The notes beneath the pieces are model-generated. The model was not told the DNA's origin, did no database searches, and worked only from the letters and a program-made list of their open reading frames with translations. A stretch of DNA of 37,032 nucleotides from the IMG/VR virus record IMGVR_UViG_3300047548_001872. One strand, written 5' to 3'. The translations under genes and the position numbers were made by a program. This DNA comes from a virus. Its lineage: Duplodnaviria > Heunggongvirae > Uroviricota > Caudoviricetes. Position 1 is the first letter of the stretch, and each line of letters begins with the position of its first letter. Shown here piece after piece: positions 2,149-37,032 of the stretch.

Positions 2149-2836
2149 TTTTGTTTTGTTTTAAAATTCTTAAAGCGTCTTCCTTGCTAATATTTTTTGT
2201 TTCAATTTTTGAACCATAGATGTCAGTAACCAGACCGTAATTTCCGTTTACACGAACTACATCACCGATTGCTGGTTTTTGATGCAAAACACCACCTTTT
2301 TTAAACTGTGTGGGATTTTCTTCAACCGCATCAATGTCCGCTCTTGCTATTGATATTTGAGCATTTTGCTTCGCTCTTAGCAATGATAAAGCCTCTTCTT
2401 TGGTTAAGTTTCGTGTAATTACTTTACTCCCGACTACATCCGTTACAATACCATAATTTTTGCCAACACGGATGACATCATTTACTTCAGGCGGAACGAC
2501 AACCTGTTTGGCAGGCGTTTGATTGTTTGGAGCTTGTGCTTGAGGTGGTTTTTCATTGAGCGATTTAAAGATGTTATCTTCAAAAAAATCAATTGCCATT
2601 TCAAAAGTCTCTTTTAAGTTCTTGCCTAATTTTTTAGGCAAAAACTCTTTGTAAATTGTGTAGACTCCATCGACTTCTTTGAAAACCTTGTATGGATGTT
2701 CCTCCTTAACGTCCAAAGGGTTGAATTTAACCTCAATATTCATTCCACTTGATTCGTGGGTAAGCCTATAAATCACCTCTCTTTCGGAGATGATAATTGG
2801 GTCTTGTCTTAGTTTTCCTTTTTTATAAACGAACAT
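2141..2836 (-). CDS. Hypothetical protein with duplicated ~40-aa KOW-like C-terminal domain
   Basis: PEVNDVIRVGKNYGIVTDVVGSK..TKEEALSLLR and PAIGDVVRVNGNYGLVTDIYGSK..SKEDALRILK, separated by an FKKGG motif. Confidence 0.7.
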   Translation of the reverse strand: MFVYKKGKLRQDPIIISEREVIYRLTHESSGMNIEVKFNPLDVKEEHPYKVFKEVDGVYTIYKEFLPKKLGKNLKETFEMAIDFFEDNIFKSLNEKPPQAQAPNNQTPAKQVVVPPEVNDVIRVGKNYGIVTDVVGSKVITRNLTKEEALSLLRAKQNAQISIARADIDAVEENPTQFKKGGVLHQKPAIGDVVRVNGNYGLVTDIYGSKIETKNISKEDALRILKQNKNG

Positions 2837-7353: not shown

Positions 7354-7893
7354 TTAAACGTGATTCCAAATTTTATTTAACAAAATTAAACTAATTAGTG
7401 TCGAATCAACATTGTATATTTTAGCAATCTCTTTCAATGTTTTTGTTCTACCAATTCTTCTTATTTCTAAAACTTGAATTTCGGTTAGTTTTGACATTCC
7501 GTGTTCAGAACCTTTTTGCGGTATTTTTAAATTATTTTTTAAAGAATGTACAACATTTTCAGATGAAGTTACCCACTCTAAATTGCCTACCCAATTGTCA
7601 TCTTTTATTCCATTTATATGGTTTACTTGTGGTTTATAAAATGGATTATCTATAAATTCAGCAGCCACTAATCTATGTGAAGCAAAAGATTTCTCAACTC
7701 CATTTTTAGATAGTTTGTACTTTAAATAACCATCTTGGTTTTTAAATGGAATCAAAATTCTTTCTTTTTTATTTAGAAAGACCCCCTTTCTGGATTCAAC
7801 TATACGAGCTATAGATTTTATCCTACCAATGTTTGAAACTTGGTAATGACCTTCATATCCCTTAATATCTCTCCATTCCTCAATTCTTTCCAT
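7354..7893 (-). CDS. NUMOD4-HNH homing endonuclease
   Basis: EEWRDIKGYEGHYQVSNIGRIKS (NUMOD4); HRLVA..F..QVNHINGIKDDNWVGNLEWVT..EN (HNH); C-terminal HTH-like tail. Confidence 0.92.
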   Translation of the reverse strand: MERIEEWRDIKGYEGHYQVSNIGRIKSIARIVESRKGVFLNKKERILIPFKNQDGYLKYKLSKNGVEKSFASHRLVAAEFIDNPFYKPQVNHINGIKDDNWVGNLEWVTSSENVVHSLKNNLKIPQKGSEHGMSKLTEIQVLEIRRIGRTKTLKEIAKIYNVDSTLISLILLNKIWNHV

Positions 7894-7948: not shown

Positions 7949-8884
7949 TTACCACTTAAACAACAATCTAACATAGTCAGGACAACAAGGCGTTACATCC
8001 CCTCCGTTTTCCATTAATTTTAATTGGTTGATAGGTACGCCTAATTTAGAGTAATTCCTGTTTTTAGGCAGCTTCATACCTCCTCTTTCAATGATTTCGT
8101 ACTTATCGTTTGAACCATCGATAACCATGTACCCATCAATATCTTCCTTGAGTTTATTAAAAGCAGACTTCCCTTTGGCAAAAAAATCATCAATAACTGC
8201 CATTGGCACAAATCGACCACTTTTTTTGTAACGCTCTAAGGCTCTTTGCTTGATAGTTGCTTCAGGAACTTTGTCCATGTAAACAATAAATATTTTATAC
8301 CCCAACTCTTTTAGCAATTTAACCAAAGGCTCATAGCTCTTAACGCTATTCATAGTGCCATCATAAATGATGTCATACTTACAGGGAATGCCAATAACTC
8401 TATCTGACAAAAGCGTATTGACAATATCCTTTGTCTCTAAATGCGTAGAGGTAGCGTTCCAACCCTTGTATTCGGGTAATTTTGCTCTGATTTCGTCGGC
8501 ATCTACTCTTAGAATATCTTCTTCAAGAAGATAAGGAGCATACTTTTTTAAGAAAGTACTTTTGCCACTTGCTGGACTCCCACCCATAAGTATGGCTATT
8601 GGCTTGTCGTTTTCAACGCAAATCAAGTCTTTTTTAAATCCATCGATTATGGTTTGGTGAAATTTAGTTCTTTCAGGGGTGTATTTCCCCGTAGATTCAT
8701 TGAAGTATTTTGATTTAGTTTGAGGAAGATTCTCGGCATAGTCAGTTAAGGCTTTGATTGCCTCATCATCAATTCTTCTCTCTCCATTTTTGTCGTATAT
8801 TTTATCTCGAACTTGCTTTGGTATAGAAGTATCAATAGCACCGCCATTCTCGTAGAACTCGGAATAATTGATTTTGTTTTTCAT
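7949..8884 (-). CDS. Zeta-toxin-family P-loop kinase
   Basis: ILMGGSPASGKST, RVDADEIRAKLPEY, IIYDGTM, GYKIFIVYM, RALERYKKSGRFVP. Confidence 0.85.
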   Translation of the reverse strand: MKNKINYSEFYENGGAIDTSIPKQVRDKIYDKNGERRIDDEAIKALTDYAENLPQTKSKYFNESTGKYTPERTKFHQTIIDGFKKDLICVENDKPIAILMGGSPASGKSTFLKKYAPYLLEEDILRVDADEIRAKLPEYKGWNATSTHLETKDIVNTLLSDRVIGIPCKYDIIYDGTMNSVKSYEPLVKLLKELGYKIFIVYMDKVPEATIKQRALERYKKSGRFVPMAVIDDFFAKGKSAFNKLKEDIDGYMVIDGSNDKYEIIERGGMKLPKNRNYSKLGVPINQLKLMENGGDVTPCCPDYVRLLFKW

Positions 8885-10539: not shown

Positions 10540-11802
10540 TTAAGAAAGTTTGTCAATGATGGTTTTGAATTGACTTGCGGTGTTCTTCCAACTCAAGGTG
10601 CTTACTCTTTGAAAAGCACTTTCGATTTTTTGATTCAAAATTTCTTTCAAATCGTCAGGCTCGTTTTTGAAGTTGTAGGCATACCCCATGACTTGTGTGA
10701 CTTCGTTAGGATTGGTTGTAAATCGAATTTTTTCAAAATCATTTACAAAGACGGTTCTTTGTGAAAACTTGAATGAAATACAATTTTCCCCATAATTTGT
10801 AATTTCAGGTAGTGAAGTGTGTTGTGGGCAAATCACAAGGGTTTTTGTTGCCATAGCCTCACAAATTGATAATCCCCAACCTTCTGCCGTAGTTGTGGTT
10901 ATGAAAATATCAAATGCGTTGTAAATTCGGTTCAATTGCCCCTCTGAAACCCCTTTGTTTTCATTAAAGTTTTTCGGAGTAATTACATCTTTGCTAAAAT
11001 CCAATCCAACCCTTTCGCAAAGTCTTGGGATGTTTATACCCATAGGGTCTAACGGGTTAGAGTGAAGGTACAAGGCAGCATCAACATCGGGATTGGTATG
11101 TTTGAACATAGCAAATCCAATAATTAGACTTGCCAAGTCCTTTCTGGCTGAATTTCTATTGACAGTTCCGAACAAGAAAGTATCTTTTCTTTCCTCACCA
11201 AGAATATCAATTTTTGATTGGATTTTTTCTTCTTCAGATAAAGGGAAAAAGTCGGTTGTGTTGCACCCGTGCGGAATGACCTTTATTTTTTTGAAATTGG
11301 ATTCCGAAGTCAATACTTTCATTGAGTTTTTGCCGTATTCGGTATATGTTACTACGGCATCAAAGAATGACAAAATATTTAAGTCGGATGGTCTTGGTTC
11401 ACTATCAATTGGAAAGTAAACAATAGACTTGAAATTTGGCTTGTTTTCCTTCTTTTTAGCCAACTTCACGTTTTTAAGATGCTCACCCATTTCGTTGAAA
11501 ATTTCAATGTCGTTCAGACAAAAAACCACATCAAAATCATTTTGGTACAACAAGTTCAAAAATTCAAGTCTACAATACACATCTTTTTTTGATTCCGATG
11601 TTGACAAGGCTGGGATTACAAACACGTTTGGCTTGTAGTTGTAATGCTTTTCCGAAAAGTCGTTTATTGCAAAGACTGTAATCTTTAAATTTGAGTCCTT
11701 GCTCCAATTGTCAATTAAGTTTTTCGATACGTGACCGAATCCAGTTGTGCATCCGAAATCTCCGAAAAAAAGTAAGTTTGTTTGTTTATTTTTTTTTGCC
11801 AT
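10540..11802 (-). CDS. Glycosyltransferase family 4 (GT-B)
   Basis: FFGDFGCTTGFGHVSKNL; VIPHG; DIFITTTTAEGWGLSICEAMA. ATG at 11802 abuts the upstream stop. Confidence 0.88.
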   Translation of the reverse strand: MAKKNKQTNLLFFGDFGCTTGFGHVSKNLIDNWSKDSNLKITVFAINDFSEKHYNYKPNVFVIPALSTSESKKDVYCRLEFLNLLYQNDFDVVFCLNDIEIFNEMGEHLKNVKLAKKKENKPNFKSIVYFPIDSEPRPSDLNILSFFDAVVTYTEYGKNSMKVLTSESNFKKIKVIPHGCNTTDFFPLSEEEKIQSKIDILGEERKDTFLFGTVNRNSARKDLASLIIGFAMFKHTNPDVDAALYLHSNPLDPMGINIPRLCERVGLDFSKDVITPKNFNENKGVSEGQLNRIYNAFDIFITTTTAEGWGLSICEAMATKTLVICPQHTSLPEITNYGENCISFKFSQRTVFVNDFEKIRFTTNPNEVTQVMGYAYNFKNEPDDLKEILNQKIESAFQRVSTLSWKNTASQFKTIIDKLS

Positions 11803-11803
11803 T

Positions 11804-12148
11804 TTATATTTTTTTGCCATTAATTTTAATCCAAAACACGCCATCCTTCAGCACCAATACATCGCTATAAGAAGTGCAATTAAACGCAATTCCTTCGTGC
11901 TTTCCTGTGTCGCCAATCAAAGGGATAACTCTATCAAAAAACTCGCCTTTATTTGACAACTCAATCTTCCAATCACCATCGTAGGTAATTTTGCCTTTTG
12001 TGCCATCAGAACACTCAAAAGGAATGCCCCTTTGGGCTAATGTCCAATTCGTATATTCTCCTGAATTTTGACCTTCAATTTCGATGCAATCGTCAGAAGA
12101 GCCATAAAGCAAAGTGTGGTTTTTTTTACTTTGGTATTCCATATCCAA
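11804..12148 (-). CDS. Hypothetical phage protein
   Basis: 114-aa ORF with YGSSDDCIEIEG motif; coupled to neighbours. Confidence 0.6.
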   Translation of the reverse strand: MDMEYQSKKNHTLLYGSSDDCIEIEGQNSGEYTNWTLAQRGIPFECSDGTKGKITYDGDWKIELSNKGEFFDRVIPLIGDTGKHEGIAFNCTSYSDVLVLKDGVFWIKINGKKI

Positions 12149-12299
12149 TCATTTTTTTGTTTTTGTCAAAAACGGGGTAGAAATAACCCACTTTTGAAGT
12201 TAATTTTTCTGCTTCAGATTTTGTCTCGACGAAAGTAGACCTGTTCATTTGAAAGAAGACCGTGACTTCCACGCCACAATCATTAAATAGTCGTTCCAT
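12126..12299 (-). CDS. Small hypothetical protein (57 aa)
   Basis: Hand-translated MERLFNDCGVEVTVFFQ...GYGIPK, directly behind the 12326 promoter. Confidence 0.65.
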   Translation of the reverse strand: MERLFNDCGVEVTVFFQMNRSTFVETKSEAEKLTSKVGYFYPVFDKNKKMIGYGIPK

Positions 12300-12325
12300 T
12301 TTTTAATTTTTAGTGTTTGTTAGTA

Positions 12326-12355
12326 CAAATATAAAATTAATATTTTATAGTACAA
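12326..12355 (-). promoter_or_regulatory. Early-type promoter with conserved leader
   Basis: TTG-N19-TATATTTG followed by TACTAACAAACACT. Confidence 0.8.
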
Positions 12356-12373
12356 CAAAAAATTGATTTTTTT

Positions 12374-13093
12374 TTAGTGGTTTTCATAATCGTGAATACA
12401 AGTAACTTCACGGACAACATAGCACTTTAGTCCATGTGCTTGGGAATGAAGCCTAATTCGCTCCCACATATCGCCATCGCTCGGAAAATAGCGTTCTTCT
12501 TCTTCCCACAAGTCTCGGTATTCGAAAGGTATTTGATTAAAGTCGATATAAGCCGAACTGTGAATTAAAGAAGCGTAGGCAGGATAATGCTCAACAACTT
12601 GACCATCGCAAACCATTTCAGGAAATACAGGGTTGTTTATGTATCGTGAAAGCGTATGAATAAAGGCAGGATTGCTTTTTGACTGAATAGCCTTGCTGAT
12701 TACTTCTAAGTGATTCGGAAGCCAAACATCGTCATGGTCTAAATGGCACATTTTACTAAACCCTCTATTTTTTGCCATTCGGATAGCGAAATTTAGTGCA
12801 TTTGCGCCTCCACAATTCCACAAGGCTACGTTATTCACTCCTAAATATTTGTCACGCTCTTTAGCGTAAGTCAAGTTTAGATGATACAGTCTTCCCTTCA
12901 TGGATGGGTATGTTTGCAAAAACCACTTTATAATTTCTGAAAACTCAGAACTATCCTCATATTTGTCACCAACAATAAACAAGGAAAAGTCTTGATATGA
13001 CTGGGTTGCGATGCTAATCAATGCACGTTTTATAAAATCAGGCGTTTGACCATCGGTTCTTTGGTAGGTGTGTAGTGTTACTGCGAGTTTCAT
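12374..13093 (-). CDS. Glycosyltransferase family 2 (GT-A)
   Basis: ALISIATQSYQDFSLFIVGD; HLDHDDVWLPNHL. Confidence 0.82.
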   Translation of the reverse strand: MKLAVTLHTYQRTDGQTPDFIKRALISIATQSYQDFSLFIVGDKYEDSSEFSEIIKWFLQTYPSMKGRLYHLNLTYAKERDKYLGVNNVALWNCGGANALNFAIRMAKNRGFSKMCHLDHDDVWLPNHLEVISKAIQSKSNPAFIHTLSRYINNPVFPEMVCDGQVVEHYPAYASLIHSSAYIDFNQIPFEYRDLWEEEERYFPSDGDMWERIRLHSQAHGLKCYVVREVTCIHDYENH

Positions 13094-13740
13094 TTTTTTC
13101 TAATTACAAAACAATTTCCTTCTTTCAATTCACTTGGATATGCCCCTAAATTGTTTTCGAGAGTGCCAATAACTTCATAATCATCAAGGGTCAGAAGCAA
13201 TTCGTTAACGACTTTCTTTACATCAGGACTATGGATGCTATCATTGTAATCGTCAAAAACGATGTAACCCCCAGACTTAACCAAATCAGAGTACATAACA
13301 AAGTCAGCCATTACCCCTTCAAAAGAATGGTCTCCGTCTATAAATAGAACATCAATTCTATTTGAATAACCTAAAACACTTGAATTGCTAAGTGCCTCAA
13401 TTACTTGATTCTTGGTTGCAATTTCTCGTGAATTACCCTGAATATATTTATAATAATTATTATTATTTTTATACTTTATTACATTTTCTAATACTTCTAC
13501 TTTTGGTATGGGTTCTCCTAAGTCAATGCTTATGACGGTTGTGTTTGACCTTTGCAGCATTAAACAAGAACTTCCACCTGCGTATGCTCCTATTTCAACG
13601 TAGTTTATAGGCTTTTCTCCAAAGCTTTCGGCTATATCAAAAAGGATGTGGTAATGATGGTGAAAAGTTGGCAAATTTGAAGAAATGCCTCTAACCAAGT
13701 CAAGTGATTTTTGGGTCGGTTTTATTGATTGTTTGCTCAT
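13090..13740 (-). CDS. Class I SAM-dependent methyltransferase (Methyltransf_24-like)
   Basis: YVEIGAYAGGS; IDVLFIDGDHSFEGV..D..LVKSGGYIVFDDY. Start at 13740 by ATGA overlap. Confidence 0.88.
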   Translation of the reverse strand: MSKQSIKPTQKSLDLVRGISSNLPTFHHHYHILFDIAESFGEKPINYVEIGAYAGGSSCLMLQRSNTTVISIDLGEPIPKVEVLENVIKYKNNNNYYKYIQGNSREIATKNQVIEALSNSSVLGYSNRIDVLFIDGDHSFEGVMADFVMYSDLVKSGGYIVFDDYNDSIHSPDVKKVVNELLLTLDDYEVIGTLENNLGAYPSELKEGNCFVIRKK

Positions 13741-14240
13741 TTTTTTAAATCGTTTTTTGTTTTTATTTTGTGGTGTTCTTCGCAAAGATACTGGTAGTTC
13801 GACAACCAACAACCACCACCTCCTTTGTGTACTGGAATAATGTGGTCTTTATGTATTGCTGAATAGCTTAATCCGTTCTTCATCATCTTGTACTCATCGG
13901 TTAAACCGCACTCAATACATGCAACTACACCATGATATAATTTTAAATAACTTGAAATTACTTCTGAATAGCCATTGATTATTGCCCAAATAGCTTGAGC
14001 AAAATATTTACACTCATCATTTGCCCAACGCTTTTTTTTGCCTTCCAATTTAGCACCGCAACCACAAGCACATGTATTTTCAATATTAGGGAACATTTCA
14101 ATAATTGACACTCCTTGAACTCTCAAGTAAGGATTAATTTTAATCCTATCGTAAATTGGTTTTGGGTCAAAAAAAAGAACTCTCTTTTGATAGTCCTTAC
14201 ATTCACGAACTTCCTTAATAGATAATTGATTATACAACAT
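13737..14240 (-). CDS. HNH endonuclease (zinc-binding)
   Basis: CIECG..HKDHIIPVHKGGG..NYQYLCEEHHKIKT; start uncertain. Confidence 0.8.
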   Translation of the reverse strand: MLYNQLSIKEVRECKDYQKRVLFFDPKPIYDRIKINPYLRVQGVSIIEMFPNIENTCACGCGAKLEGKKKRWANDECKYFAQAIWAIINGYSEVISSYLKLYHGVVACIECGLTDEYKMMKNGLSYSAIHKDHIIPVHKGGGGCWLSNYQYLCEEHHKIKTKNDLKK

Positions 14241-14841
14241 TTTTCTTGATAATTTTTGCAGGCGTTCCGACATAAACACCGCTTTCAGATAGATGAGAAA
14301 CAACCCCAGCGTTTAGCCCCACAACGATGTCTTTTTCAATAGTTATTTTCTCCTTAACAACCGCATTAGTGCCTAAATAAACGGATTCCTTTACGTGTAC
14401 ATTACCGCTGATATTTACATTTGGTGCGGTTGTAACAAAATCTTCTAAAATTGAATCATGACCAACGGTAGTATTCAGGTTTAAATGTACGTGATTGCCT
14501 AACTTTATGTTGGTTGTTAGAATACATCCAGCGCAAATTATAACTCCGTGTCCGACTTGTATTTTATATTTATCAATAATTTTGGCATCAGGTGAAATGA
14601 AGCTCCAAAACGCAATATTTTTAGGTAATTTTCTCAAAATTGACTCTTTGCTTTTAGGGTCTCCTACGGCAATCAAAGCAATATGCTCCATAAAATTAAG
14701 TTCAGTAATTCGGTGCAATCCGTCTTCTTCACGGTAATATTCATCATCGACAAACATTTTTAGATTTTTACCAAATTGGTCGTTATATGCTGCTCTTATC
14801 TCACGAGCAAAACCTCCAGCTCCTATTAATACTTTTTCCAT
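14230..14841 (-). CDS. NeuD/PglD-family sugar acetyltransferase (hexapeptide repeat)
   Basis: VLIGAGGFAREI; IAVGDP; left-handed beta-helix repeats with VGHD. TAATG overlap at 14841. Confidence 0.9.
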   Translation of the reverse strand: MEKVLIGAGGFAREIRAAYNDQFGKNLKMFVDDEYYREEDGLHRITELNFMEHIALIAVGDPKSKESILRKLPKNIAFWSFISPDAKIIDKYKIQVGHGVIICAGCILTTNIKLGNHVHLNLNTTVGHDSILEDFVTTAPNVNISGNVHVKESVYLGTNAVVKEKITIEKDIVVGLNAGVVSHLSESGVYVGTPAKIIKKNVV

Positions 14842-15026
14842 TATTTCTTTGATTTTAATGATTGCCATTTAGCCTTTTCCGATTCAGCCAATTCTTGTTT
14901 TGTCATCTCAGATTTGATTCTTGGCTTGTCATTTTTATAATCCCAAGCCCACAAAACTGACTTTCCTTCTGAATTTGCGATTTTCATTTCGCCATACGCT
15001 TTCAATAATCTTTGTAGACCACTCAT
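14841..15026 (-). CDS. Hypothetical protein (61 aa)
   Basis: Fills the gap with coupled start and stop. Confidence 0.55.
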   Translation of the reverse strand: MSGLQRLLKAYGEMKIANSEGKSVLWAWDYKNDKPRIKSEMTKQELAESEKAKWQSLKSKK

Positions 15027-15770
15027 TTATTTGATTTTTTGATAGTTAGAAAATTGTTCTTTAAACCATATTTTATCAAAAACTTGCTTTTTATATTCGA
15101 AATATGGATTGCCATCTCTATACAAATCCCAAGTTTCGTGATACGCAAGGTTTTTAGTTGTGTGAACCCATAATTTACCTCTTTGGCTTACCTCTTGAGC
15201 AATGTAGGAATCAACGTAAATTATGTTGTCAAAAAGGTTTAAGTTTTCATTTTTTACGGTCAATAGGAAGTTTCCAGTATGACCAACAGTGCATTGCCTT
15301 TTTTTGTCAGAATTATGCTTTATAGCGTGTGATTCATGCACATATTGCTCAACACTTAACGGATTTTCGTTACGATAATCATTTCCACCCCACAAATCAC
15401 AAGTTGATACTACAACATCGGGAAGCTCTAAACCCTCGAATATTTCCAAAAAGGTGTCTTCGATATTATAAACAAACAAATCTCCATCAGTAATTGTTAT
15501 GTATTGGTATTCGGAGAGAAGTTCTTTGTAGTCTTTCAAGAAAATGTTTATAGCTGAATTCGCTACATTTTCATCAAAGATAATATACCCCTTGAGCCAT
15601 TCATCATCAAGATATTCCGAGAAATAACTTCTGATTTTCTCTGTGTTTTCGGATGGATTTTCAACAACAAAAATGTCTGCTCCTTCCTTGCCAAAAATAG
15701 ATTGGAAACTATTTTGAATAATTTCAGGATGTTGATAAGCCAAAAAAACTATGATGTGATTGTTTTTCAT
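15027..15770 (-). CDS. Putative GT-A-fold glycosyltransferase
   Basis: IFVVEN, YITITDGDL (DxD-like); located in the glycan cluster. Confidence 0.55.
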   Translation of the reverse strand: MKNNHIIVFLAYQHPEIIQNSFQSIFGKEGADIFVVENPSENTEKIRSYFSEYLDDEWLKGYIIFDENVANSAINIFLKDYKELLSEYQYITITDGDLFVYNIEDTFLEIFEGLELPDVVVSTCDLWGGNDYRNENPLSVEQYVHESHAIKHNSDKKRQCTVGHTGNFLLTVKNENLNLFDNIIYVDSYIAQEVSQRGKLWVHTTKNLAYHETWDLYRDGNPYFEYKKQVFDKIWFKEQFSNYQKIK

Positions 15771-15771
15771 G

Positions 15772-16098
15772 TCAACCAGTGCTTTCTATAAATTCAATGC
15801 TTTTTTTACTAATTTTAAGAGGGCTTGGAAACGACTTGCTTCTTGCTCTATGTGTATAGACAAAAAAACCTTCTTTATCTGCACCCATAGAACACCCGTT
15901 TATCTTGGAAGATATTTTAAGCATCCCCGAAGGCTTTGTTAGACCAAAAACAGAACCATTGTTATATCTACTTGAAGAAGTAGCATATTTGAGTATTTCT
16001 TCTTTCATTTTAGAAGATAACTTTCGGCTTCCCTTAATTTGTTTTATAACATCAGGTTTTTGCTGACCTAAATTTGATTTTGCTTTCATTGTTTCCAA
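15772..16098 (-). CDS. Basic hypothetical protein
   Basis: 108-aa ORF coupled to neighbours. Confidence 0.55.
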   Translation of the reverse strand: METMKAKSNLGQQKPDVIKQIKGSRKLSSKMKEEILKYATSSSRYNNGSVFGLTKPSGMLKISSKINGCSMGADKEGFFVYTHRARSKSFPSPLKISKKSIEFIESTG

Positions 16099-16765
16099 AG
16101 TTTAAATTTGCTTAAATCAGGATAAGGCAACTCCAAATCCTCGTTATGCTTCTTACTCCCATCAGGATTATAAAATTGGTTCATCAACAACAAGCCTCTT
16201 GTAGCTAATTCAGGCATCATATAAAAGTTCCAACCAATAACTGGGTTGTCGTCAAAGTTGTCGTCGTGATAACTACACTCGCTTCTTCCGCTAAAACGGG
16301 CTTTTTTAGCCATTTGTAGGCTTCTTCGTCATCAAGTAGTATTGCGCCTCCTTTTGATAGCTTAAAATGCTTGTATGCTCCCGTAAAGGAAATACACATC
16401 ATTGATTCAGGAATGTACATATCTGCTGTAAATCGAAGTGCGCTATCCCAAACGTTTGTAGGTGTTAATTGATACGCCCCTTTTATGGTTTCGCCTTGAA
16501 CTTCGGTAAAATTAACCTTGCACCCAGCGTGAATGACTTCGCAAGGTACAGAGGGATAAGTTCTTTGCGGAACATCGACGATTGGCTTTAATTCCAAAAG
16601 ACTTGGGTAATCATTTAATTTTTTATGCTCTTTCATTTTCCAATAAGTCAAACAAAGAAACAAAGCATTACTTTGATTGTCCACGCACACAACGTATGGT
16701 GCGCCTGTGTATTTTGCCAATTCTTTCTCGAATTCAGCCGTAGTTTTATGTACTCCTTGTGCCAT
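16086..16765 (-). CDS. DegT/DnrJ/EryC1/StrS-family aminotransferase, split by a -1 frameshift at 16301-16307
   Basis: N-part EFEKELAKYTGAPY..NALFLCL..VWDSA..CISFTGAYKHFKLSKGGAILLDD; C-part ARFSGR..GWNFYMMPELATRGL in the -1 frame; junction CTA AAA AAG. Confidence 0.8.
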
Positions 16766-16767
16766 AA

Positions 16768-17511
16768 TTATTCTGATATTAAATAGTAAATATCAAACCC
16801 TTTAATTTTAATTAAACATCCGAAAATTCGCTCTAAATGATGAGCAATAGACCCATCTCCAATGTATCCTTCTTGAAACTGCGGATAGAACCTTTCATAA
16901 ATTTCATTTTCCTTCATCCATGAAGTCAATATTTCAAAATCAACCATAAACATTGTCCCAGCGACAAAAGAATATTCATCAAAATAGATTGATTGATGGA
17001 AGTACTCTTGCTCATATCCTAACAAATTTTGTGGCAAAATCCAAATACCCGAACCTGCCATTTTGAAGATGGGGTTTTCAACTATTGAATTAAAACAAAG
17101 TTGAAACTTTTCTGGTGAAGACAATAATGCTGAAACAAGATTATATCTCCATCTATTGCCTAATTCTGCTCCGTGAGCCAAACTCTTTTTTCCGTGCAAC
17201 TTTAATACACAATCGTAGGTTTTCCCTGATTGAATGATTTGATTTATAGTATCCAAGAAAGGGGCAACATCCAAGCCTCGATTCGGATATTTTTTAAAAT
17301 AGGCGTTTGGATATGTTGATTTTACTTTTTGCTCCAAATCGAAGTCTTGTGAACCTTCATTTGTTGTTACAAACAAATCGAAATCAGTAGTGATGTTTTT
17401 CAAATATGGAACAAACCATTCCCATAAATCTTGATAGTACAAGTGTAGTATAACGCAAACCGATTTTTTTTCGGCTATGGATTGCTGATGAAGAGAATGA
17501 AAACTATTCAT
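16768..17511 (-). CDS. Rhamnan synthesis F (RgpF)-like glycosyltransferase
   Basis: LHLYYQDLW; PNRGLDVAPFL; LKLHGKKS; FVAGTMF; HHLERIFG. Confidence 0.8.
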   Translation of the reverse strand: MNSFHSLHQQSIAEKKSVCVILHLYYQDLWEWFVPYLKNITTDFDLFVTTNEGSQDFDLEQKVKSTYPNAYFKKYPNRGLDVAPFLDTINQIIQSGKTYDCVLKLHGKKSLAHGAELGNRWRYNLVSALLSSPEKFQLCFNSIVENPIFKMAGSGIWILPQNLLGYEQEYFHQSIYFDEYSFVAGTMFMVDFEILTSWMKENEIYERFYPQFQEGYIGDGSIAHHLERIFGCLIKIKGFDIYYLISE

Positions 17512-17513
17512 GA

Positions 17514-18152
17514 CTATTGATTGAAAGGTGTTGAAAAGGTTTCCGAGTTCGGCATACCTCCCCACTTTGAAATGTAGTATTGTCTATTTTTTTCAAAACC
17601 TTGATTTAATTCTGGTTGCAAAGCAATTGTCATACTATTGCGGTAGATTTCAGGGTTTAAAAAAGCCGTGTAGACTATGTTTATATTGGACAACATCATC
17701 CTTCTGAAGTAATCATTATCCTCGAAATATGCAGGGAAGAATGATTCGTCAAAAGCCCCTACTTTTTTATATGTTTCGACGGGCAAAATGAAGCTGCACC
17801 AATTAAGTTCGCTATTGAAAAATTCAGCATCTTTCCATAGCCTAATCAATGTCATAATTTGAGATTCATCTTTGCCTAAATAAATGTCGTCGTTAAGCAT
17901 TAATACATGGGTTGCATCGGTGCGGATAGCATAATCCATAATCATATTCCAAGAACCCGAAACACCCAAGTTTTTTTCAGGTCTATAGACGACCATTTTG
18001 TTCTCTCTGGAAATAATGTTTTGGTTGCCATTATCGCAAATTACGATTTCTGTATTCTTGAAATCTTCGTAGTATTTTGATAAAGCATCATTGAGTAAAT
18101 CGGCTCTATTAATTGTAGGAATACCGATTATTAGTTTTGTTGGTTTTTCCAT
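17514..18152 (-). CDS. Glycosyltransferase family 2
   Basis: IGIPTINR; NLGVSGSWN; LMLNDDI; FDESFFPAYFEDNDYFRRM. Confidence 0.88.
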   Translation of the reverse strand: MEKPTKLIIGIPTINRADLLNDALSKYYEDFKNTEIVICDNGNQNIISRENKMVVYRPEKNLGVSGSWNMIMDYAIRTDATHVLMLNDDIYLGKDESQIMTLIRLWKDAEFFNSELNWCSFILPVETYKKVGAFDESFFPAYFEDNDYFRRMMLSNINIVYTAFLNPEIYRNSMTIALQPELNQGFEKNRQYYISKWGGMPNSETFSTPFNQ

Positions 18153-18163
18153 AAATGTTGTTG

Positions 18164-18397
18164 TTATTTTTGAGTTTCTTGCTCCCACTCGCCTTTTGGA
18201 CAAGACTCGTCGGCATATTTTGTTTTTTGGTTTACGAAGCATCCGCAAAGTTTACATCTCCCATTTCCCGATACAGTCCATTCCCCATCGGTTACACAAT
18301 CCCTACACTTTTCTAATCTTGATTTCCAAATATCTTTGGAAACCTTTTCAATAGAATCACCTTTGACTATCTTGAACGCATCAAAAAATACTGACAT
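18164..18397 (-). CDS. Small Cys-rich putative metal-binding protein
   Basis: RLEKCRDC..CKLCGCFV..K..CPKGEW. Confidence 0.7.
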   Translation of the reverse strand: MSVFFDAFKIVKGDSIEKVSKDIWKSRLEKCRDCVTDGEWTVSGNGRCKLCGCFVNQKTKYADESCPKGEWEQETQK

Positions 18398-31422: not shown

Positions 31423-31456
31423 TTTTTAATGTTTTTGCGTTAAGTGTTTGTTAGTA

Positions 31457-31486
31457 CAAATATATAATAATAATTATTATAAACAA
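31457..31486 (-). promoter_or_regulatory. Early-type promoter with conserved leader
   Basis: TTG-N19-TATATTTG then TACTAACAAACACTTAA. Confidence 0.82.
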
Positions 31487-31503
31487 TACATTTGAAAATA
31501 TTT

Positions 31504-32744: not shown

Positions 32745-33110
32745 TTAATTTTCTTGAATTTCTATGATTCCGTTTTGATACTCTATTTTTTTATAGGTTA
32801 TTGATATTGTCTTTATTTTGCCTTCACCTTTTTGAATATGAATTACACCATATACCTTTGCATTTTCTAATTCCAATACTACAAAACCTTCTTTCAACTG
32901 TTTAGCCTCATACCTTTTAACTAACAAGGCAATAACCTCGTCTTTTATGTTTGGTCTTGCTTTAGAATTACAAAAGATAATGGTTGAATCTTTTTTTGTG
33001 TAGACTTGCTCTATACCCTCGTTCCCGTGTTTATAGTAAACAATTTTCTGAGAGCATATTGTACAACACCATAAAAACAAGGATGTAGTATGTATTAGCT
33101 TGATTTTCAT
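32745..33110 (-). CDS. Putative secreted hypothetical protein
   Basis: N-terminal signal-like segment; own promoter. Confidence 0.6.
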   Translation of the reverse strand: MKIKLIHTTSLFLWCCTICSQKIVYYKHGNEGIEQVYTKKDSTIIFCNSKARPNIKDEVIALLVKRYEAKQLKEGFVVLELENAKVYGVIHIQKGEGKIKTISITYKKIEYQNGIIEIQEN

Positions 33111-33136
33111 TTTTTCGGGTTAAGTGTTTGTCAATA

Positions 33137-33144
33137 CAAATATA
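33137..33144 (-). promoter_or_regulatory. Early-type -7 element with conserved leader
   Basis: TATATTTG then TATTGACAAACACTTAA. Confidence 0.7.
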
Positions 33145-33191
33145 AAATAAAAAATATTATAAATAATAATTTTTTACTAAAAAAATCAAAT

Positions 33192-33218
33192 AAAAAAGCC
33201 CCGATAAGTATGGGGCTT
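33192..33218 (-). terminator. Intrinsic terminator
   Basis: AAGCCCC-N9-GGGGCTT followed by a T-run on the minus strand. Confidence 0.8.
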
Positions 33219-33248
33219 GTTGTTAGTGGTATGCACCTTGTTTTGGGT

Positions 33249-33312
33249 GTATAAGTCTGATAAATGGTTGTATAAGTCGGTAAAATATGCTCTTAGCGAT
33301 GAGTTAGCACTT
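33249..33312 (+). other. Possible attI-like recombination site
   Basis: GTATAAGTC direct repeats at 33249 and 33270; GTTAGCACTT at 33303 is the exact inverted complement of AAGTGCTAAC at 34104. Confidence 0.3.
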
Positions 33313-33733
33313 ATTTTCGAGAACGAGTGCTGATATAAAGTTTGTCTTTTCTAATTATACAAACATCATTCTCAAAAGGTTTGTCAAAATCCCACTTTTC
33401 TAAATAGGACTTTGATATTTTTAATACCTCACACCAAGCATTAAAAAGCAAAGTCAAATCACCATAATAGAAATTAAAACAACTTTCCTTAAATTCTAAA
33501 TGATATATTTTTCTTTTTTTATTTAAACTATCTAAATAATCATCAATTTCTTCTTGAGATGGTTTTTCAGAAAAATAACCTTTATAATAAAGTTCTTTAA
33601 TTTGATTTTCGGTCAAATCACCACCTTTTAAAGTAGTGTTTTCTTTTACTTTAGTTCCATTTTGTTTAATTGTATATGTAACAGGATATAGTAAATTTTC
33701 TTCTACTAACAAAGCAAAGTTTATATATTTCAT
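33311..33733 (-). CDS. Hypothetical protein (putative cassette A)
   Basis: 140-aa ORF; stop codon abuts GTGCTAAC. Confidence 0.62.
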   Translation of the reverse strand: MKYINFALLVEENLLYPVTYTIKQNGTKVKENTTLKGGDLTENQIKELYYKGYFSEKPSQEEIDDYLDSLNKKRKIYHLEFKESCFNFYYGDLTLLFNAWCEVLKISKSYLEKWDFDKPFENDVCIIRKDKLYISTRSRK

Positions 33734-33737
33734 TTTA

Positions 33738-33995
33738 TTAAAAATTTAAAGATTTTACAAAACACCATTTTTTCATTAACTTTTTAGATAATAAATTATT
33801 TTTCCAGGTTTTTCCGTTTTTTACAACTCTATTTTTATCTACTAAAAAATTAGCTTTAGCCGTTTCAATTTCGTTATCTTTAAAAACAACAACACCGTTT
33901 GCAATTTCATCATCATAGTATTTCATTAGATAAATACCTTTAAATCGTAAATTTCCGTTTACAGTTTTATTAAAAGAATAAATGTGAGCTTCCAT
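33738..33995 (-). CDS. Hypothetical protein (putative cassette A)
   Basis: 85-aa ORF behind the promoter at 34024. Confidence 0.58.
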   Translation of the reverse strand: MEAHIYSFNKTVNGNLRFKGIYLMKYYDDEIANGVVVFKDNEIETAKANFLVDKNRVVKNGKTWKNNLLSKKLMKKWCFVKSLNF

Positions 33996-34023
33996 ATTTT
34001 TATAGTTTTAAAATTTATATATG

Positions 34024-34031
34024 CAAATATA
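34024..34031 (-). promoter_or_regulatory. -7 promoter element TATATTTG
   Basis: In the AT-rich gap 28 nt upstream of ATG 33995. Confidence 0.6.
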
Positions 34032-34106
34032 AACATTAATATTATCAACTTCCAAATAAAAATGCAATTATTATAAATAAAAATATCATTTAATAATAAA
34101 AACAAG

Positions 34107-34237
34107 TGCTAACACTCGCTTTGTGCTATTGCAAATCTTGTGGTTTAATCACATTTACGTTTCGCATCACGTTTATTTGTAACCGAAAATACTCGTTTAC
34201 GAACTTTGCAACAGCACAAAGCGTGAAACCGTTATAG
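34107..34237 (+). mobile_element. attC-like site 1
   Basis: TGCTAAC-act-CGCTTTGTGCT.TTGCAAA ... TTTGCAA.AGCACAAAGCG-tgaaacc-GTTATAG. Confidence 0.72.
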
Positions 34238-34267
34238 GTAATTGTTTTAAAAATTCCTACCGCACAG

Positions 34268-34480
34268 TTACGTTTTCAAATTGAAATTACTACCATCAAA
34301 TGTGAACCTATTGTTGTTGTCTATAGCATCGCGTAATTGACGTTTTGTTTCGATTTTTTGATATTCACCTTCATTGTTAATGAAATATTCAAAATGTGTT
34401 TCATCTAACCAATTTCTTCCAAACATCGGTCTGTCATCATCTACTGGTTCATCTAACCAGCTACTTCCAAATAGTGCCAT
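34268..34480 (-). CDS. Hypothetical protein (putative cassette B) with internal WLDE repeat
   Basis: FGSSWLDE / FGRNWLDE; flanked by 22-bp inverted repeats. Confidence 0.65.
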   Translation of the reverse strand: MALFGSSWLDEPVDDDRPMFGRNWLDETHFEYFINNEGEYQKIETKRQLRDAIDNNNRFTFDGSNFNLKT

Positions 34481-34525
34481 AACAATTTAGTTTTTAATGC
34501 CAACGCTAATTTTTAAAACAACTAC

Positions 34526-34618
34526 CTATAACATAGTATTGGCAAAATGCCACAGATAGTTTGTGCCTTGAATTTAAGTTTGTACTGGTGGCACTTCGCC
34601 AATACTCAACCGTTATGC
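34526..34618 (+). mobile_element. attC-like site 2
   Basis: CTATAAC-at-AGTATTGGC.aaaa.TGCCAC ... GTGGCA.cttc.GCCAATACT-caacc-GTTATGC. Confidence 0.75.
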
Positions 34619-34619
34619 C

Positions 34620-34835
34620 TCATTTTACCAAACGACATAAAACACTTGTTGCTTTATAATAATCGTTTAACCACCAAAAACCTTTGTCGAAATTTACTTT
34701 ACCTTTATAAATCATGCCGAATGTGTTTATGAATTCATATTCTGAATGCTCATTGAAGTATGAACTATCTCTATATAAGAAGCTCTCACTAACATCGGCT
34801 TTGCAAGATTGTTCTTGTTGGTCTAAATTGTTCAT
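34620..34835 (-). CDS. Hypothetical protein (putative cassette C), starting inside attC3
   Basis: MNNLDQQEQSCKADVSES: the CKADV codons form one arm and core box of attC3; stop TGA abuts GGCATAAC. Confidence 0.62.
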   Translation of the reverse strand: MNNLDQQEQSCKADVSESFLYRDSSYFNEHSEYEFINTFGMIYKGKVNFDKGFWWLNDYYKATSVLCRLVK

Positions 34836-34918
34836 TTTTTTGTATTTTATAGTTAGACAATAATTTTGAGGCTTGGTTATCGCTTAACCCAACCTTGCCA
34901 AGCCCCGAACCGTTACCA
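34787..34918 (+). mobile_element. attC-like site 3
   Basis: CACTAAC-atc-GGCTT.GCAAG ... CTTGC.AAGCC-ccgaacc-GTTACCA. Confidence 0.62.
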
Positions 34919-34924
34919 TACAAT

Positions 34925-35164
34925 TTAAAAAGCACCTACTTCTACAACATTAAAACAAATTTCTTCATAAACGGAACATAGACCTTCTAAGTCAGTTGGG
35001 TAATCGGGTGAGTTTTGCCAATCGATTTCGGCTTGTTTACTTTTGGGGGCTGTAAACTCAATCATCCCCTTTTTCACCGCTTCATATTCGTTTTCAGCGA
35101 CTACTTTAAAAAGTTTTAAATCATTCTCAAACATCGAGAGAATACCAACTACGTAATTTTTCAT
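34925..35164 (-). CDS. Hypothetical protein
   Basis: 79 aa; stop lies a few nt before the TGGTAAC box of attC3. Confidence 0.62.
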   Translation of the reverse strand: MKNYVVGILSMFENDLKLFKVVAENEYEAVKKGMIEFTAPKSKQAEIDWQNSPDYPTDLEGLCSVYEEICFNVVEVGAF

Positions 35165-35185
35165 ATCTTATTTCTTTAAACTGAT

Positions 35186-35347
35186 TTAAACTATTTTAGC
35201 TTCTAATTTTTTACGACGTGCTTCAATGAATTTTTGTTTAGATATACGTTGTTTGGCGATGAGTTTCAACTCGTCTAACAATTCCAATTGAAGTTGGACA
35301 AGAACAACTAATTTGTGGGATAGTTGGGATTTTCGGTTGGGTGTCAT
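35186..35347 (-). CDS. Small basic hypothetical protein (53 aa)
   Basis: Hand-translated MTPNRKSQLSHKLVV...KLEAKIV; ATGA overlap with the YopX-family stop. Confidence 0.55.
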   Translation of the reverse strand: MTPNRKSQLSHKLVVLVQLQLELLDELKLIAKQRISKQKFIEARRKKLEAKIV

Positions 35348-35793
35348 AGTCGTTCGGGATTTTCGTGGATGTTTCCTATAACTTCCATTTCTGACTGTAT
35401 TCGTGTACCATCTTGTTTTTTACCGTAATGACCCCACAAATTAAATCCAACTCCTTCAAAAGCATCAACTCCTTGAATACCGTAAGAAACTACAATTTTT
35501 TCATAGTCCCAAAAAACAACATCCCCCTCATAAATCTCCTTGCCGTTTTTATCGTGGAGGTCTATGAATTGACCCACAGATTCAGACTTTACGGATATAA
35601 AACCACCTAATGCTAAAAAATTATTCTCAATAATTGGATTTCCATTGTCGTCTTCTTCGCCAAAATCCCTTGTTCCAAAAAAGCAATAAGGCATAATATA
35701 AGGCATTTCTTTATTATTAAAAAGATACGCTAATTGACCATAAACCCATCCTTTACCGTCGGCTCTTAAACCTCTAAACTTAATTTCTCTCAT
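35344..35793 (-). CDS. YopX-family protein
   Basis: MREIKFRG..WVYG..VGQFIDLHDKNGKEIYEGDVV..EVIGNIHENPE. Confidence 0.92.
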   Translation of the reverse strand: MREIKFRGLRADGKGWVYGQLAYLFNNKEMPYIMPYCFFGTRDFGEEDDNGNPIIENNFLALGGFISVKSESVGQFIDLHDKNGKEIYEGDVVFWDYEKIVVSYGIQGVDAFEGVGFNLWGHYGKKQDGTRIQSEMEVIGNIHENPERL

Positions 35794-35810
35794 AACTTTT
35801 CTATTTCTTT

Positions 35811-35900
35811 TCAAATAGTTTTTTTATAAAACCACACTGATGTTCGTAATAAATTACACCACACTACAATTATTAGACAAGAGATAATAAAGGTTTCCAT
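35811..35900 (-). CDS. Small hydrophobic peptide (29 aa)
   Basis: METFIISCLIIVVWCNLLRTSVWFYKKTI fills the operon gap. Confidence 0.45.
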   Translation of the reverse strand: METFIISCLIIVVWCNLLRTSVWFYKKTI

Positions 35901-35905
35901 AGTTG

Positions 35906-36091
35906 TTATTTTTTAAATTGTTCAAACCATTTATTAAATACTCCTATAAGAATGTTGTTTCTGCCCATAGTATAAGCATCTTTAGCTATCTTTTCAACTT
36001 CTTCCTCACTATAACTTGAATCTAAAGATTTTCTAAGTTCCTTGATTTCTTCATCTTTTAGTTGTTCTATTTGTTTTTGAGATTTCCACAT
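35906..36091 (-). CDS. Mosaic hypothetical protein
   Basis: YSEEEVEK..KWFEQFKK modules. Confidence 0.65.
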   Translation of the reverse strand: MWKSQKQIEQLKDEEIKELRKSLDSSYSEEEVEKIAKDAYTMGRNNILIGVFNKWFEQFKK

Positions 36092-36098
36092 ATCTTAT

Positions 36099-36476
36099 TT
36101 ATTTTTTAAATTGGTTAAACCATTTCATTGTCACCATTTCTTCATCATTTGTGAATTTATCTAATTTAGAAGAGGGCATCATAATTAAATGATTTAGATG
36201 TTCTAAAACCTCTTCCTCACTATACTTATTCTTGTCTTGTTCTTGTTGAAATATTTTAAACCAATAATCTCTTGCTGCGTTTGATTTAGCACCTGCGATA
36301 AAATCTTCTATTGTTATTTCTCCTTGTGTTTGTGTTATTGATACATCAGGATGAATGTCGTTAAAATAAACCCCCCACATTTTTTTCGAATGTTTCTCTG
36401 CAGCCTCCTCAACCGTTTCTTGTTTTGGTTCTTCTCGGTTGAAATACCACTTCCCTTTAGTTCCTTTAAATTCCAT
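36099..36476 (-). CDS. Mosaic hypothetical protein
   Basis: KQETVEEAA, FIAGAK, YSEEEV and WFNQFKK modules. Confidence 0.7.
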   Translation of the reverse strand: MEFKGTKGKWYFNREEPKQETVEEAAEKHSKKMWGVYFNDIHPDVSITQTQGEITIEDFIAGAKSNAARDYWFKIFQQEQDKNKYSEEEVLEHLNHLIMMPSSKLDKFTNDEEMVTMKWFNQFKK

Positions 36477-36505
36477 AATTTGAGTTTTTTAAGTATTTGT
36501 TAGTA

Positions 36506-36535
36506 CAAATGTAGTAAATATATTTTTTGCTACAA
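36506..36535 (-). promoter_or_regulatory. Early-type promoter with conserved leader
   Basis: TTG-N19-TACATTTG then TACTAACAAATACTTAA. Confidence 0.82.
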
Positions 36536-36575
36536 CAAAAAAGTGTTAAAATTATTTTTATTTTTTGTTTTATGG

Positions 36576-37032
36576 TTTTCATTTTCCCGTTATACTAAGT
36601 AAATGCTTGATAATTAGGAATCTAATTTCTGATTTTGGTTAATGAATATCCTTGGAAACCCTCCTAAATCCACCCTACACCCCTCTATTCCCGACAAAAT
36701 ACCTTTTCATTTTCCCGTTATACTAAGTAAATGCTTGATAATTAGGAATCTAATTTCTGATTTTTGTTTGGTAATTGGGTTAAAAGTGGGTGTTTTTGGC
36801 TGATTCCCTCTATTCCCGACAAAATTCCCTTTTCATTTTCCCGTTATACTAAGTAAATGCTTGATAATTAGGCATCTAATTTCTGATTTTGGTTTGTGAA
36901 TTTCCCCAAAACCCACCCTACACCCCTCTATTCCCTACAAAATTCCTTTTCATTTTCCCGTTATACTAAGTAAATGCTTGATAATTAGGAATCTAATTTC
37001 TGATTTTGGTTAATGAATATCCTTGGAAACCC
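36576..37032. repeat. Non-coding tandem array: ~90-bp conserved block plus ~28-40-bp variable segment (runs off the window)
   Basis: Core TTTTCATTTTCCCGTTATACTAAGTAAATGCTTGATAATTAGGAATCTAATTTCTGATTTT starts at 36576, 36704, 36830 and 36947 (periods 128, 126, 117). Confidence 0.92.

Follow-up and report, generated by a model that had tools for sequence, protein, structure and literature searches.

Gene cassettes in integrons lack a promoter, each gene has a start codon of its own, and the recombination site is regarded as non-coding. The coupling peptide of ORF-11, which is 11 codons long and located at the one attI site, stops in the cassette core without fusion to the cassette protein, and fused integron cassettes arise by attC deletion (PMC8876359; PMC4670013). 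Virulent phages, Polaribacter phage P12002L among them, have been reported to carry clusters of attC sites without an integrase (CALINs) (PMC9892861), and the PeSLs of T4-type phages combine an early sigma-70 promoter with a terminator stem-loop, are repeated at the borders of cassettes and act via homologous recombination between repeats (PMC2839356; PMC4122927). In the Muminvirus phages, methyltransferase content differs and tracks plating efficiency on hosts including strain LMO6, and the report of this work makes no mention of hairpins, cassettes or a recombinase (PMC7077304). The literature that we searched covers CALINs, attI1 ORF-11, fused cassettes and PeSLs, and we did not find in it any recombination hairpin that encodes the start of a gene.

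Here we describe a phage locus with hairpins of this kind. The window (the whole stretch of DNA analyzed, 37,032 nucleotides) is an early region of the phage, with all genes on the minus strand. We estimate at roughly 0.7 the probability that the phage carries an integron-like array of three gene cassettes, with the ORF at 34620-34835 as the first, and that the hairpin of this ORF is both a recombination site and a portable translation start.

Layout of the hairpin array

Three intergenic elements in the window (hairpins A, B and C, Table 1) have one layout, consisting of TAAC, a 5-7 nt spacer that opens with GGTT, an arm, a loop, a second arm, 2-3 nt, and GTTA. The sequence TAACGGTT is present in 3 copies in 37 kb, compared with 0.9 expected, and all three are in the array, each just past a stop codon; the TAACGGT foot of hairpin A is 10 nt past the stop of the upstream gene (34925-35164). 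One of the pairs formed by the arms of hairpin A is G.T, and the single mismatch is G/A. A homologous hairpin at locus L015 matches hairpin C exactly from TAAC to GTTA.

Table 1. Positions of the hairpins, feet and first gene of the array in the window
Feature	Position	Strand	Details
ORF, 71 aa	34620-34835	minus	Residues 1-18 hairpin-encoded; conserved ~55-aa family core from ~residue 19
Hairpin A, whole	34915-34790	minus	Imperfect, 126 nt
Hairpin A, TAAC	34915-34912	minus	
5' foot core TAAC with conserved spacer start (TAACGGT)	34909-34915	minus	Three copies, all in this array
Hairpin A, spacer GGTTCGG	34911-34905	minus	
Hairpin A, 5' arm GGCTTGGCAAGGTTG	34904-34890	minus	Non-coding; 14/15 pairs; alignment A5 columns 25-39, covary with 3' arm
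Competing local hairpin, 9 bp	34868-34906	minus	Uses the same 5' arm; favoured in RNA and 151-nt DNA folds
Hairpin A, loop, 78 nt	34889-34812	minus	A-rich leader, ATG (34835-34833) and codons 1-8
Hairpin A, 3' arm CAATCTTGCAAAGCC	34811-34797	minus	Codons 9-13 (Q-S-C-K-A)
Hairpin A, GAT	34796-34794	minus	D14, 3' spacer codon
Hairpin A, GTTA	34793-34790	minus	V15 (GTT, codon 15), then S16
3' core GTTA with foot GTTAGTGAGAGC	34782-34793	minus	Codons 15-18 (V-S-E-S); core/body junction in relatives
Cassette A, closing foot TGAGGCATAAC	34612-34622	minus	Includes stop TGA; doubles as 5' foot of hairpin B
Hairpin B, 87 nt	34529-34615	minus	Short class; loop without ATG; leads ORF 34268-34480
Cassette B, closing foot, 25 nt	34231-34255	minus	96% complementary to foot 34508-34532
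Hairpin C, 125 nt	34110-34234	minus	Long class; leads ORFs 33738-33995 and 33311-33733
Cassette C, closing foot AGTGCTAAC, 9 nt	33303-33311	minus	Complement of foot GTTAGCACT at 34113-34105; array end

An earlier note on this DNA had placed the ATG at 34835 and its A-rich leader in the loop of a hairpin, had read the codons for C-K-A-D-V as hairpin arm and GTT core, and had predicted a crossover within the reading frame after about 14 residues. The description proved accurate to the base, with codons 9-13 in the 3' arm, codon 14 in the spacer and codon 15 as GTT, and the predicted position of the crossover, after about 14 residues, is correct as well. The same note recognized that a true start downstream of the GTT would refute it. 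This is not the case, as neither ATG nor GTG nor TTG is present between codon 1 and codon 41 of the 71-aa ORF; the loop ATG is its obligatory start. The ORF has no match in Pfam or PHROGs, and an exact search with the window's own 3' arm and foot returned nothing. The window contains no tRNA or RNA family detectable by ARAGORN and Rfam, and blastn of positions 33000-36500 against the phage collection found no relative.

In the arrays that we examined, each body is entered by a foot after GTTA and closed by the exact complement of that foot before the next TAAC, and the foot pairs covary (at least 7 pairs, including GTGGCA/TGCCAC, GCCACA/TGTGGC, GCCGCA/TGCGGC and TGCGTT/AACGCA). Cassette A of the window is excepted, since its closing foot (GAGGCATAAC) mismatches its own 3' foot (GTTAGTGAGA). 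This closing foot, TGAGGCATAAC, is also found at L002, L015, L073, L074, L078 and L087. Both TGAGGCATAAC and its complement GTTATGCCTC recur across many unrelated cassettes, and the complement carries a frame-0 ATG that could be a body's own start (MPR..). In cassette B, the 70-aa ORF at 34268-34480 lies between 25-nt inverted repeats (34231-34255 and 34508-34532), which are the longest cassette feet seen, and circularisation would lengthen the stem of hairpin B by 25 bp.

The two cassette feet must pair, and consequently the N- and C-terminal residues of the encoded proteins covary. In a methyltransferase family (L133-L212) the ends are linked, VSGS being found with ..CH-stop, and VSHS and VSRS with ..CG-stop. 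N-terminal residue 3 (G, H or R) covaries with the last residue (H or G), and the codons for both are in the complementary feet. A universal junction peptide was considered and rejected, since there are cassettes in which the foot is translated in frame 1 or frame 2. The foot pattern GAGGCATAACGGTT matched 94 viral loci, mostly by chance, and arrays were present in only six.

Several other features of the window were recorded. At the upstream end of the early region (36535-37011) are four tandem units of ~106 nt, spaced 117-128 nt apart and each with TTTTCCCGTTATACTAA; these could be an origin, iterons or a regulatory array. A 70-nt repeat with TTAAGTGTTTGT and AGTACAAATAT is located upstream of blocks of minus-strand genes (31424-31493, 33104-33173 and 36473-36542), and may represent an early promoter or leader of the Bacteroidota type. 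The products of the ORFs at 2823-7340, 7354-7893 and 7949-8884 are a polyvalent protein of 1505 aa, which has an ART-PolyVal domain at its C-terminus, a NUMOD4/HNH endonuclease and a zeta-toxin-like kinase, and these ORFs are followed by a block of glycosyltransferase and sugar-modifying genes (10540-18248).

Reassortment of cores and bodies

The 71-aa protein has three close homologs (P0002-4) with the same architecture, and the gene is also carried by a second contig of 2.2 kb. A profile search identified 29 relatives, nearly all of 54-64 aa and alignable only from about residue 19, and at L004 the body directly follows the preceding gene, with no hairpin. On the strength of these alignments, the first 18 residues of the window protein are a hairpin-encoded addition. 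Another homolog (P0006) has a different 15-aa extension, distant homologs at L005 and L006 have no hairpin context, and an alignment of the small protein against viral contigs gave no related locus.

At L001-L003, a common unit extends from the T of TAAC to the stop codon within the next TAAC, and the flanks on both sides are unrelated. The window body is 82% identical to the bodies in these loci (65-70% at third codon positions), and the window core is at background similarity, ~50-59%. Its identity to each of the other core types is 45-59%. These values fit a core swap in the window gene without proving it, and from the sequences a swap cannot be distinguished from plain divergence. We rejected a closest relationship to the Hh type (L191), given the same 45-59% identity to all core types.

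We then used the arms of the L001-type core, termed H1, to search viral and metagenome contigs. H1 cores that are 70-99% identical precede nine body families without mutual blastp similarity, one of them being the family of the window gene (L001-L003). All nine bodies start in the loop, with a leader ending ..PESCLAS(-VSGS), are joined in frame, and diverge right past GTTA. Core identity across unrelated bodies reaches 94.6-99.2%, and is 94.6% between the small-protein cassette of L001 and the cassette of an unrelated 139-aa protein. Seven different foot sequences follow the H1 core, and in one of these (L102, GTTA followed by TGCGTT) only 4-8 nt of sequence are shared. In a further pair, L015 and L073, the cores are 86% identical and have a common leader, after which one locus encodes a C5-methyltransferase and the other a DPPY-type methyltransferase. 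The loop ATG is the only workable start at L015, since motif I of the C5-methyltransferase begins two residues past the foot. A body resembling PP-loop ATPases is fused directly to a hairpin leader at L074 (95-997), and has its own start at L015 (reverse strand, 4966-6085), where it comes after a 56-aa hairpin-led ORF; the two loci differ by ~130 nt right past a common 18-nt foot.

The reverse comparison started from one DNA methyltransferase body, at 80 homologous loci that were not biased by the hairpin. A hairpin-type leader was present in ~64 of the 80, and our scanner found a long-class hairpin (117-128 nt) in ~60 of those. At all loci but one, which extends further upstream, the ATG is 39-72 nt before GTTA, and its frame is 0 throughout. 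At least 11 unrelated cores and leaders precede this body, each joined to it at GTTA in frame 0, whereas the homolog at L206 lacks a hairpin and begins at a start of its own. The body tree is incongruent with core type, requiring 30 label changes compared with a possible minimum of 12; even if only well-supported branches are counted, the commonest core type must change at least 8 times. Identical methyltransferase proteins are encoded behind H1 and behind Ha cores. In one such pair with identical proteins and different cores, L142 and L143, DNA identity is 98.6% between the G of GTTAG and the stop codon, with background similarity upstream, and the sequences are unrelated after the TAA of the following TAAC. 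The breakpoint between L157 and L193 is inside the body, ~24 nt past GTTA, and in-body breakpoints of this type look like ordinary homologous recombination.

Movement of core and body together was seen in two cultured Flavobacterium phages, mumin9-1 and mumin6-4, that are 99.8% identical over the region compared. A 506-nt segment, present only in mumin9-1 and bounded by the 7-nt repeat TAACGTT, contains a hairpin core, a gene annotated as starting within the loop, and a closing foot that complements the one following the hairpin, indicating that a hairpin and its downstream gene move as one cassette. This event, the only direct gain or loss found, was cut at TAACGTT and not at GTTA. In both phages (L213, NC_048837.1 1-5824, and L214) the Muminvirus left end is an array of hairpin cassettes, with four methyltransferase genes and several small ORFs; in mumin9-1, gp06 and gp08 have loop-encoded leaders. 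Cores bounded by TAAC and GTTA occur with unrelated flanks on both sides, always within arrays.

Two other layouts were considered and rejected. The canonical integron arrangement, in which the hairpin belongs to the upstream gene, does not fit, because orthologous bodies have unrelated downstream hairpins and because the mumin indel takes the upstream hairpin along with its gene. Crossover at TAAC only, with start and body always together, would have made the idea of fusion wrong, and was set aside in view of the reassortment seen at GTTA.

Taken together, the comparisons demonstrate that cores and bodies reassort as modules, and establish the positions of their junctions. The earlier note had inferred that the hairpin supplies the start and an N-terminal peptide while a swapped segment supplies the body, and this is supported by the nine body families behind the H1 core and the at least 11 cores in front of one methyltransferase body. 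Its suggested search for unrelated bodies past a shared VSxS-type junction with a hairpin was positive (H1, nine families), and homologs that were collinear across the junction without body swapping, which it said would count against it, are not what we found, as the bodies are swapped. We infer site-specific use of the GTTA junction from the fact that it recurs at a single nucleotide between partners with little sequence in common.

Folding, recombinases and competing explanations

The window copy of the hairpin, taken alone, folds no better than shuffled sequence (z -0.3 to -1.1), and support for the hairpin must therefore come from relatives. A 151-nt window stretch gave z -0.8 as RNA and z -0.9 as DNA, and the long hairpin forms when the copy is cut to TAAC..GTTA (z -1.1). 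The scanner score of hairpin A, 12, is within the range of the shuffled controls, and only 4 bp of foot pair. With its weak arms and mismatched feet, the window copy is probably a fixed, decaying cassette. By comparison, the homologous cassettes at L002 and L003 gave z -7.2 and -3.6 as single-stranded DNA, and the contigs of the close homologs have the same architecture with 20-bp arms. Between L003 and L001/L002, two C-G pairs are replaced by A-T pairs, with both arms changed in step and the protein changed from SCLAS to SFLSS.

For covariation we aligned 14 different core types, including the window copy (alignment A5). Paired cells made up 87.5% of the alignment, compared with 65.7% after shuffling and 29-47% with the partner slid, changes on both sides were found in 16 of the 20 arm pairs, and 96% of foot pairs were paired. 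The structure and its covariation are thus real across relatives. One G.U pair (A5 columns 36-125) is kept in 13 of the 14 cores, which identifies the coding strand as the folding strand. An in-frame loop ATG that is open to GTTA is present in 13 of the 14 core types, compared with ~0.115 expected per core by chance.

We found no tyrosine recombinase among the window ORFs scanned, which represent 37 kb of a ~101-kb phage, and none in the complete mumin9-1 genome, indicating that many arrays are orphans. In the contigs of L087 and L073, however, recombinase ORFs of 267 and 276 aa are directly downstream of the arrays, on the same strand. These array-linked enzymes (267 aa, L215, 1465-2268, minus strand; 276 aa, L216, 1450-2280, minus strand) scored 161-166 bits, in two stretches, against TIGR02249, for which the cut-off is 265, and their best match was the XerA type, at 189-200 bits compared with a cut-off of 220. 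The likely enzyme of the system is a Xer-like tyrosine recombinase of ~270 aa, whose catalytic role is inferred. The earlier note had called the sites attC, and this holds only in part: they are attC-like and bounded by AAC and GTT, but they are not classical attC sites, there is no IntI, and they are linked to an enzyme that is Xer-like. We infer that the sites fold as single-stranded DNA, that the recombinase is the catalyst, and that the GTTA junction has a site-specific origin.

In the mechanism that we propose, cassettes would be separated by hairpins composed of TAAC, a 5-7 nt spacer, an arm, a loop, an arm, a 0-3 nt spacer and GTTA, and the hairpin of the window gene would belong to a long class (~120-130 nt). 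The loop of long-class hairpins would be a translation start that is portable between genes, made up of a leader rich in A, the ATG itself and 8-18 codons. From there the ribosome would continue across the 3' arm and the foot at GTTA and on into the body, and the hairpin would thus give the start codon and the first 14-24 residues. Two modules reassort across relatives, namely the hairpin core (spacer, arms and loop) and a foot-body-foot unit with mutually complementary feet, and two junctions recur. At the TAAC/GTT junction, core and body would move as one cassette, and at the GTTA/foot junction, within the reading frame, a body would be paired with a new core and leader. A stronger version of this proposal makes the long-class core a mobile start module, with a Xer-like system of Bacteroidota phages using two crossovers (TAAC/GTT and GTTA/foot) on one folded site to shuffle start/leader modules and start-less bodies in frame. 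We hold this version only tentatively, at a little under even odds.

It is possible, although in our judgment unlikely, that hairpin and gene form a fixed unit whose sole site-specific crossover is TAAC/GTT, and that reassortment results from homologous or microhomology recombination of co-infecting phages, at feet of 10-14 nt that cassettes have in common and where the 5' ends of bodies are conserved, which would make the leader a passive by-product. Such a unit would accommodate the mumin indel, cut at TAACGTT, the exact extent of the L001-L003 unit from TAAC to the next TAAC, and the breakpoint within the body in L157 versus L193, and the few foot types, common to many cassettes, offer the necessary microhomology. 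It is harder to reconcile with an H1 core that joins seven foot sequences and switches immediately past GTTA, even where 4-8 nt are shared (L102), or with a single body to which at least 11 cores are joined at an identical nucleotide position, all in one frame, since recurrence of this kind is unexpected from homology-driven exchange.

Cassette presence or absence between phages that are 99.8% identical, cut exactly at a hairpin foot, together with the same cassette in unrelated flanks and a tyrosine recombinase at array ends, also makes it very improbable that the hairpins are mainly RNA elements instead of recombination sites. They would in that case be processing sites, stabilisers or start presenters in a polycistronic early transcript, with feet that bracket ORFs for RNase III-type cutting, as could be suggested by their intergenic position, by the translation start in the loop, and by the better folding of the coding strand, which is indicated by the conserved G.U pair (13/14 cores) and by the plus-versus-minus scores. 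An RNA role may well coexist with recombination. Hardly tenable is the idea that the true start is downstream of the hairpin and that the loop ATG is a chance extension of the frame. The extension is missing from most members of the family, which are 54-64 aa long, and some cassettes have a second ATG past the foot or in a GTTATG foot, but the idea is already contradicted in the window, where the ORF has no alternative start codon before codon 41, and it leaves unexplained the in-frame ATG in 13 of 14 core types (0.115 expected per core), as well as L015, where a later start would truncate motif I of the C5-methyltransferase.

Comparison with known systems

If the array is integron-like with a portable start, as we favor, the site holds the start codon and the first 14-24 codons of a gene, and one recurrent junction falls within the frame. 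Exchange of cassettes then produces chimeric proteins, and can provide a start-less body with a start. Pairing of the feet represents an unusual overlap of a structural DNA code with the protein code. Should the long-class core prove to be a mobile start module, recombination would determine if a cassette gene is translated and in what manner, and the site would dictate both protein ends (a VSGS N-terminus with CH-stop, VSHS with CG-stop). Many of the cargo genes found are DNA methyltransferases and, in view of the link between methyltransferase content and plating efficiency in Muminvirus (PMC7077304), the system probably drives quick change in anti-restriction equipment. By our comparison, the Muminvirus phages of Flavobacterium sp. 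LMO6/LMO9 (PMC7077304) have the same methyltransferase cassettes with hairpin-encoded leaders, at 64% identity over the whole protein including the leader, and differ from each other by whole cassettes. Their cultured phage-host pairs make the mechanism testable at the bench.

Like the hairpins described here, the short structured repeats of PeSL cassettes in T4-type phages (PMC2839356; PMC4122927) are found on either side of small accessory genes in hyperplastic regions, at the boundaries where close relatives have gained, lost or replaced genes. PeSLs differ in lacking AAC/GTT feet, complementary ends specific to each cassette, a linked tyrosine recombinase (found here at some arrays) and any coding of an N-terminus; our hairpins, from a phage with a host of Bacteroidota type, are 80-130 nt with cassette-specific feet. 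Elements of the MITE or Correia type are non-coding, have terminal inverted repeats and a target-site duplication, and are inserted at gene starts. A core with unrelated flanks would fit a mobile core of that sort, yet the 7-nt TAACGTT bounds a whole gene cassette, and cores are always in arrays.

The closest likeness is to integrons (PMC8618304; PMC8876359), in which one-gene cassettes are also located between imperfect palindromes ending in ..AAC and GTT.., an arrangement of inverse core and core found in all three window hairpins and in all relatives. As in integrons, the cassette ends complement each other, which is what completion of the site in an excised circle would require, and in the window this applies to cassettes B (25 nt) and C (9 nt) and not to A. 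Stop codons in the ..TAAC foot, near-identical sites beside unrelated genes, a tyrosine recombinase adjoining the array and orphan arrays in phages are further common features. A classical integron would have an IntI-type integrase with its family-specific extra domain, whereas the enzymes here are Xer-like, 267-276 aa long and below the integron-integrase cut-off. The spacers are also asymmetric, with a conserved 5-7 nt bulge (GKTnn) by TAAC, 0-3 nt by GTTA and a conserved G.T pair, a layout unlike that of attC, where an unpaired central spacer and extrahelical bases set strand choice, although an equivalent role is conceivable. Further, the hairpin travels with the downstream gene, as seen in the mumin indel and the L001-L003 unit, and in integrons it travels with the upstream gene, the crossover being at G|TT downstream of that gene. 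Unlike in integrons, the loop of the long class holds the start codon and leader of the gene. The nearest parallels for this are ORF-11 and ORF-17 in attI1 and the fused cassettes (PMC8876359; PMC4670013), where a frame starts within the site and crosses the crossover point, and the incoming cassette supplies the rest; the attI1 ORFs likewise give translation signals to genes without their own. Compared with ORF-11, however, every long-class hairpin has its own start, and the frame runs on into the protein.
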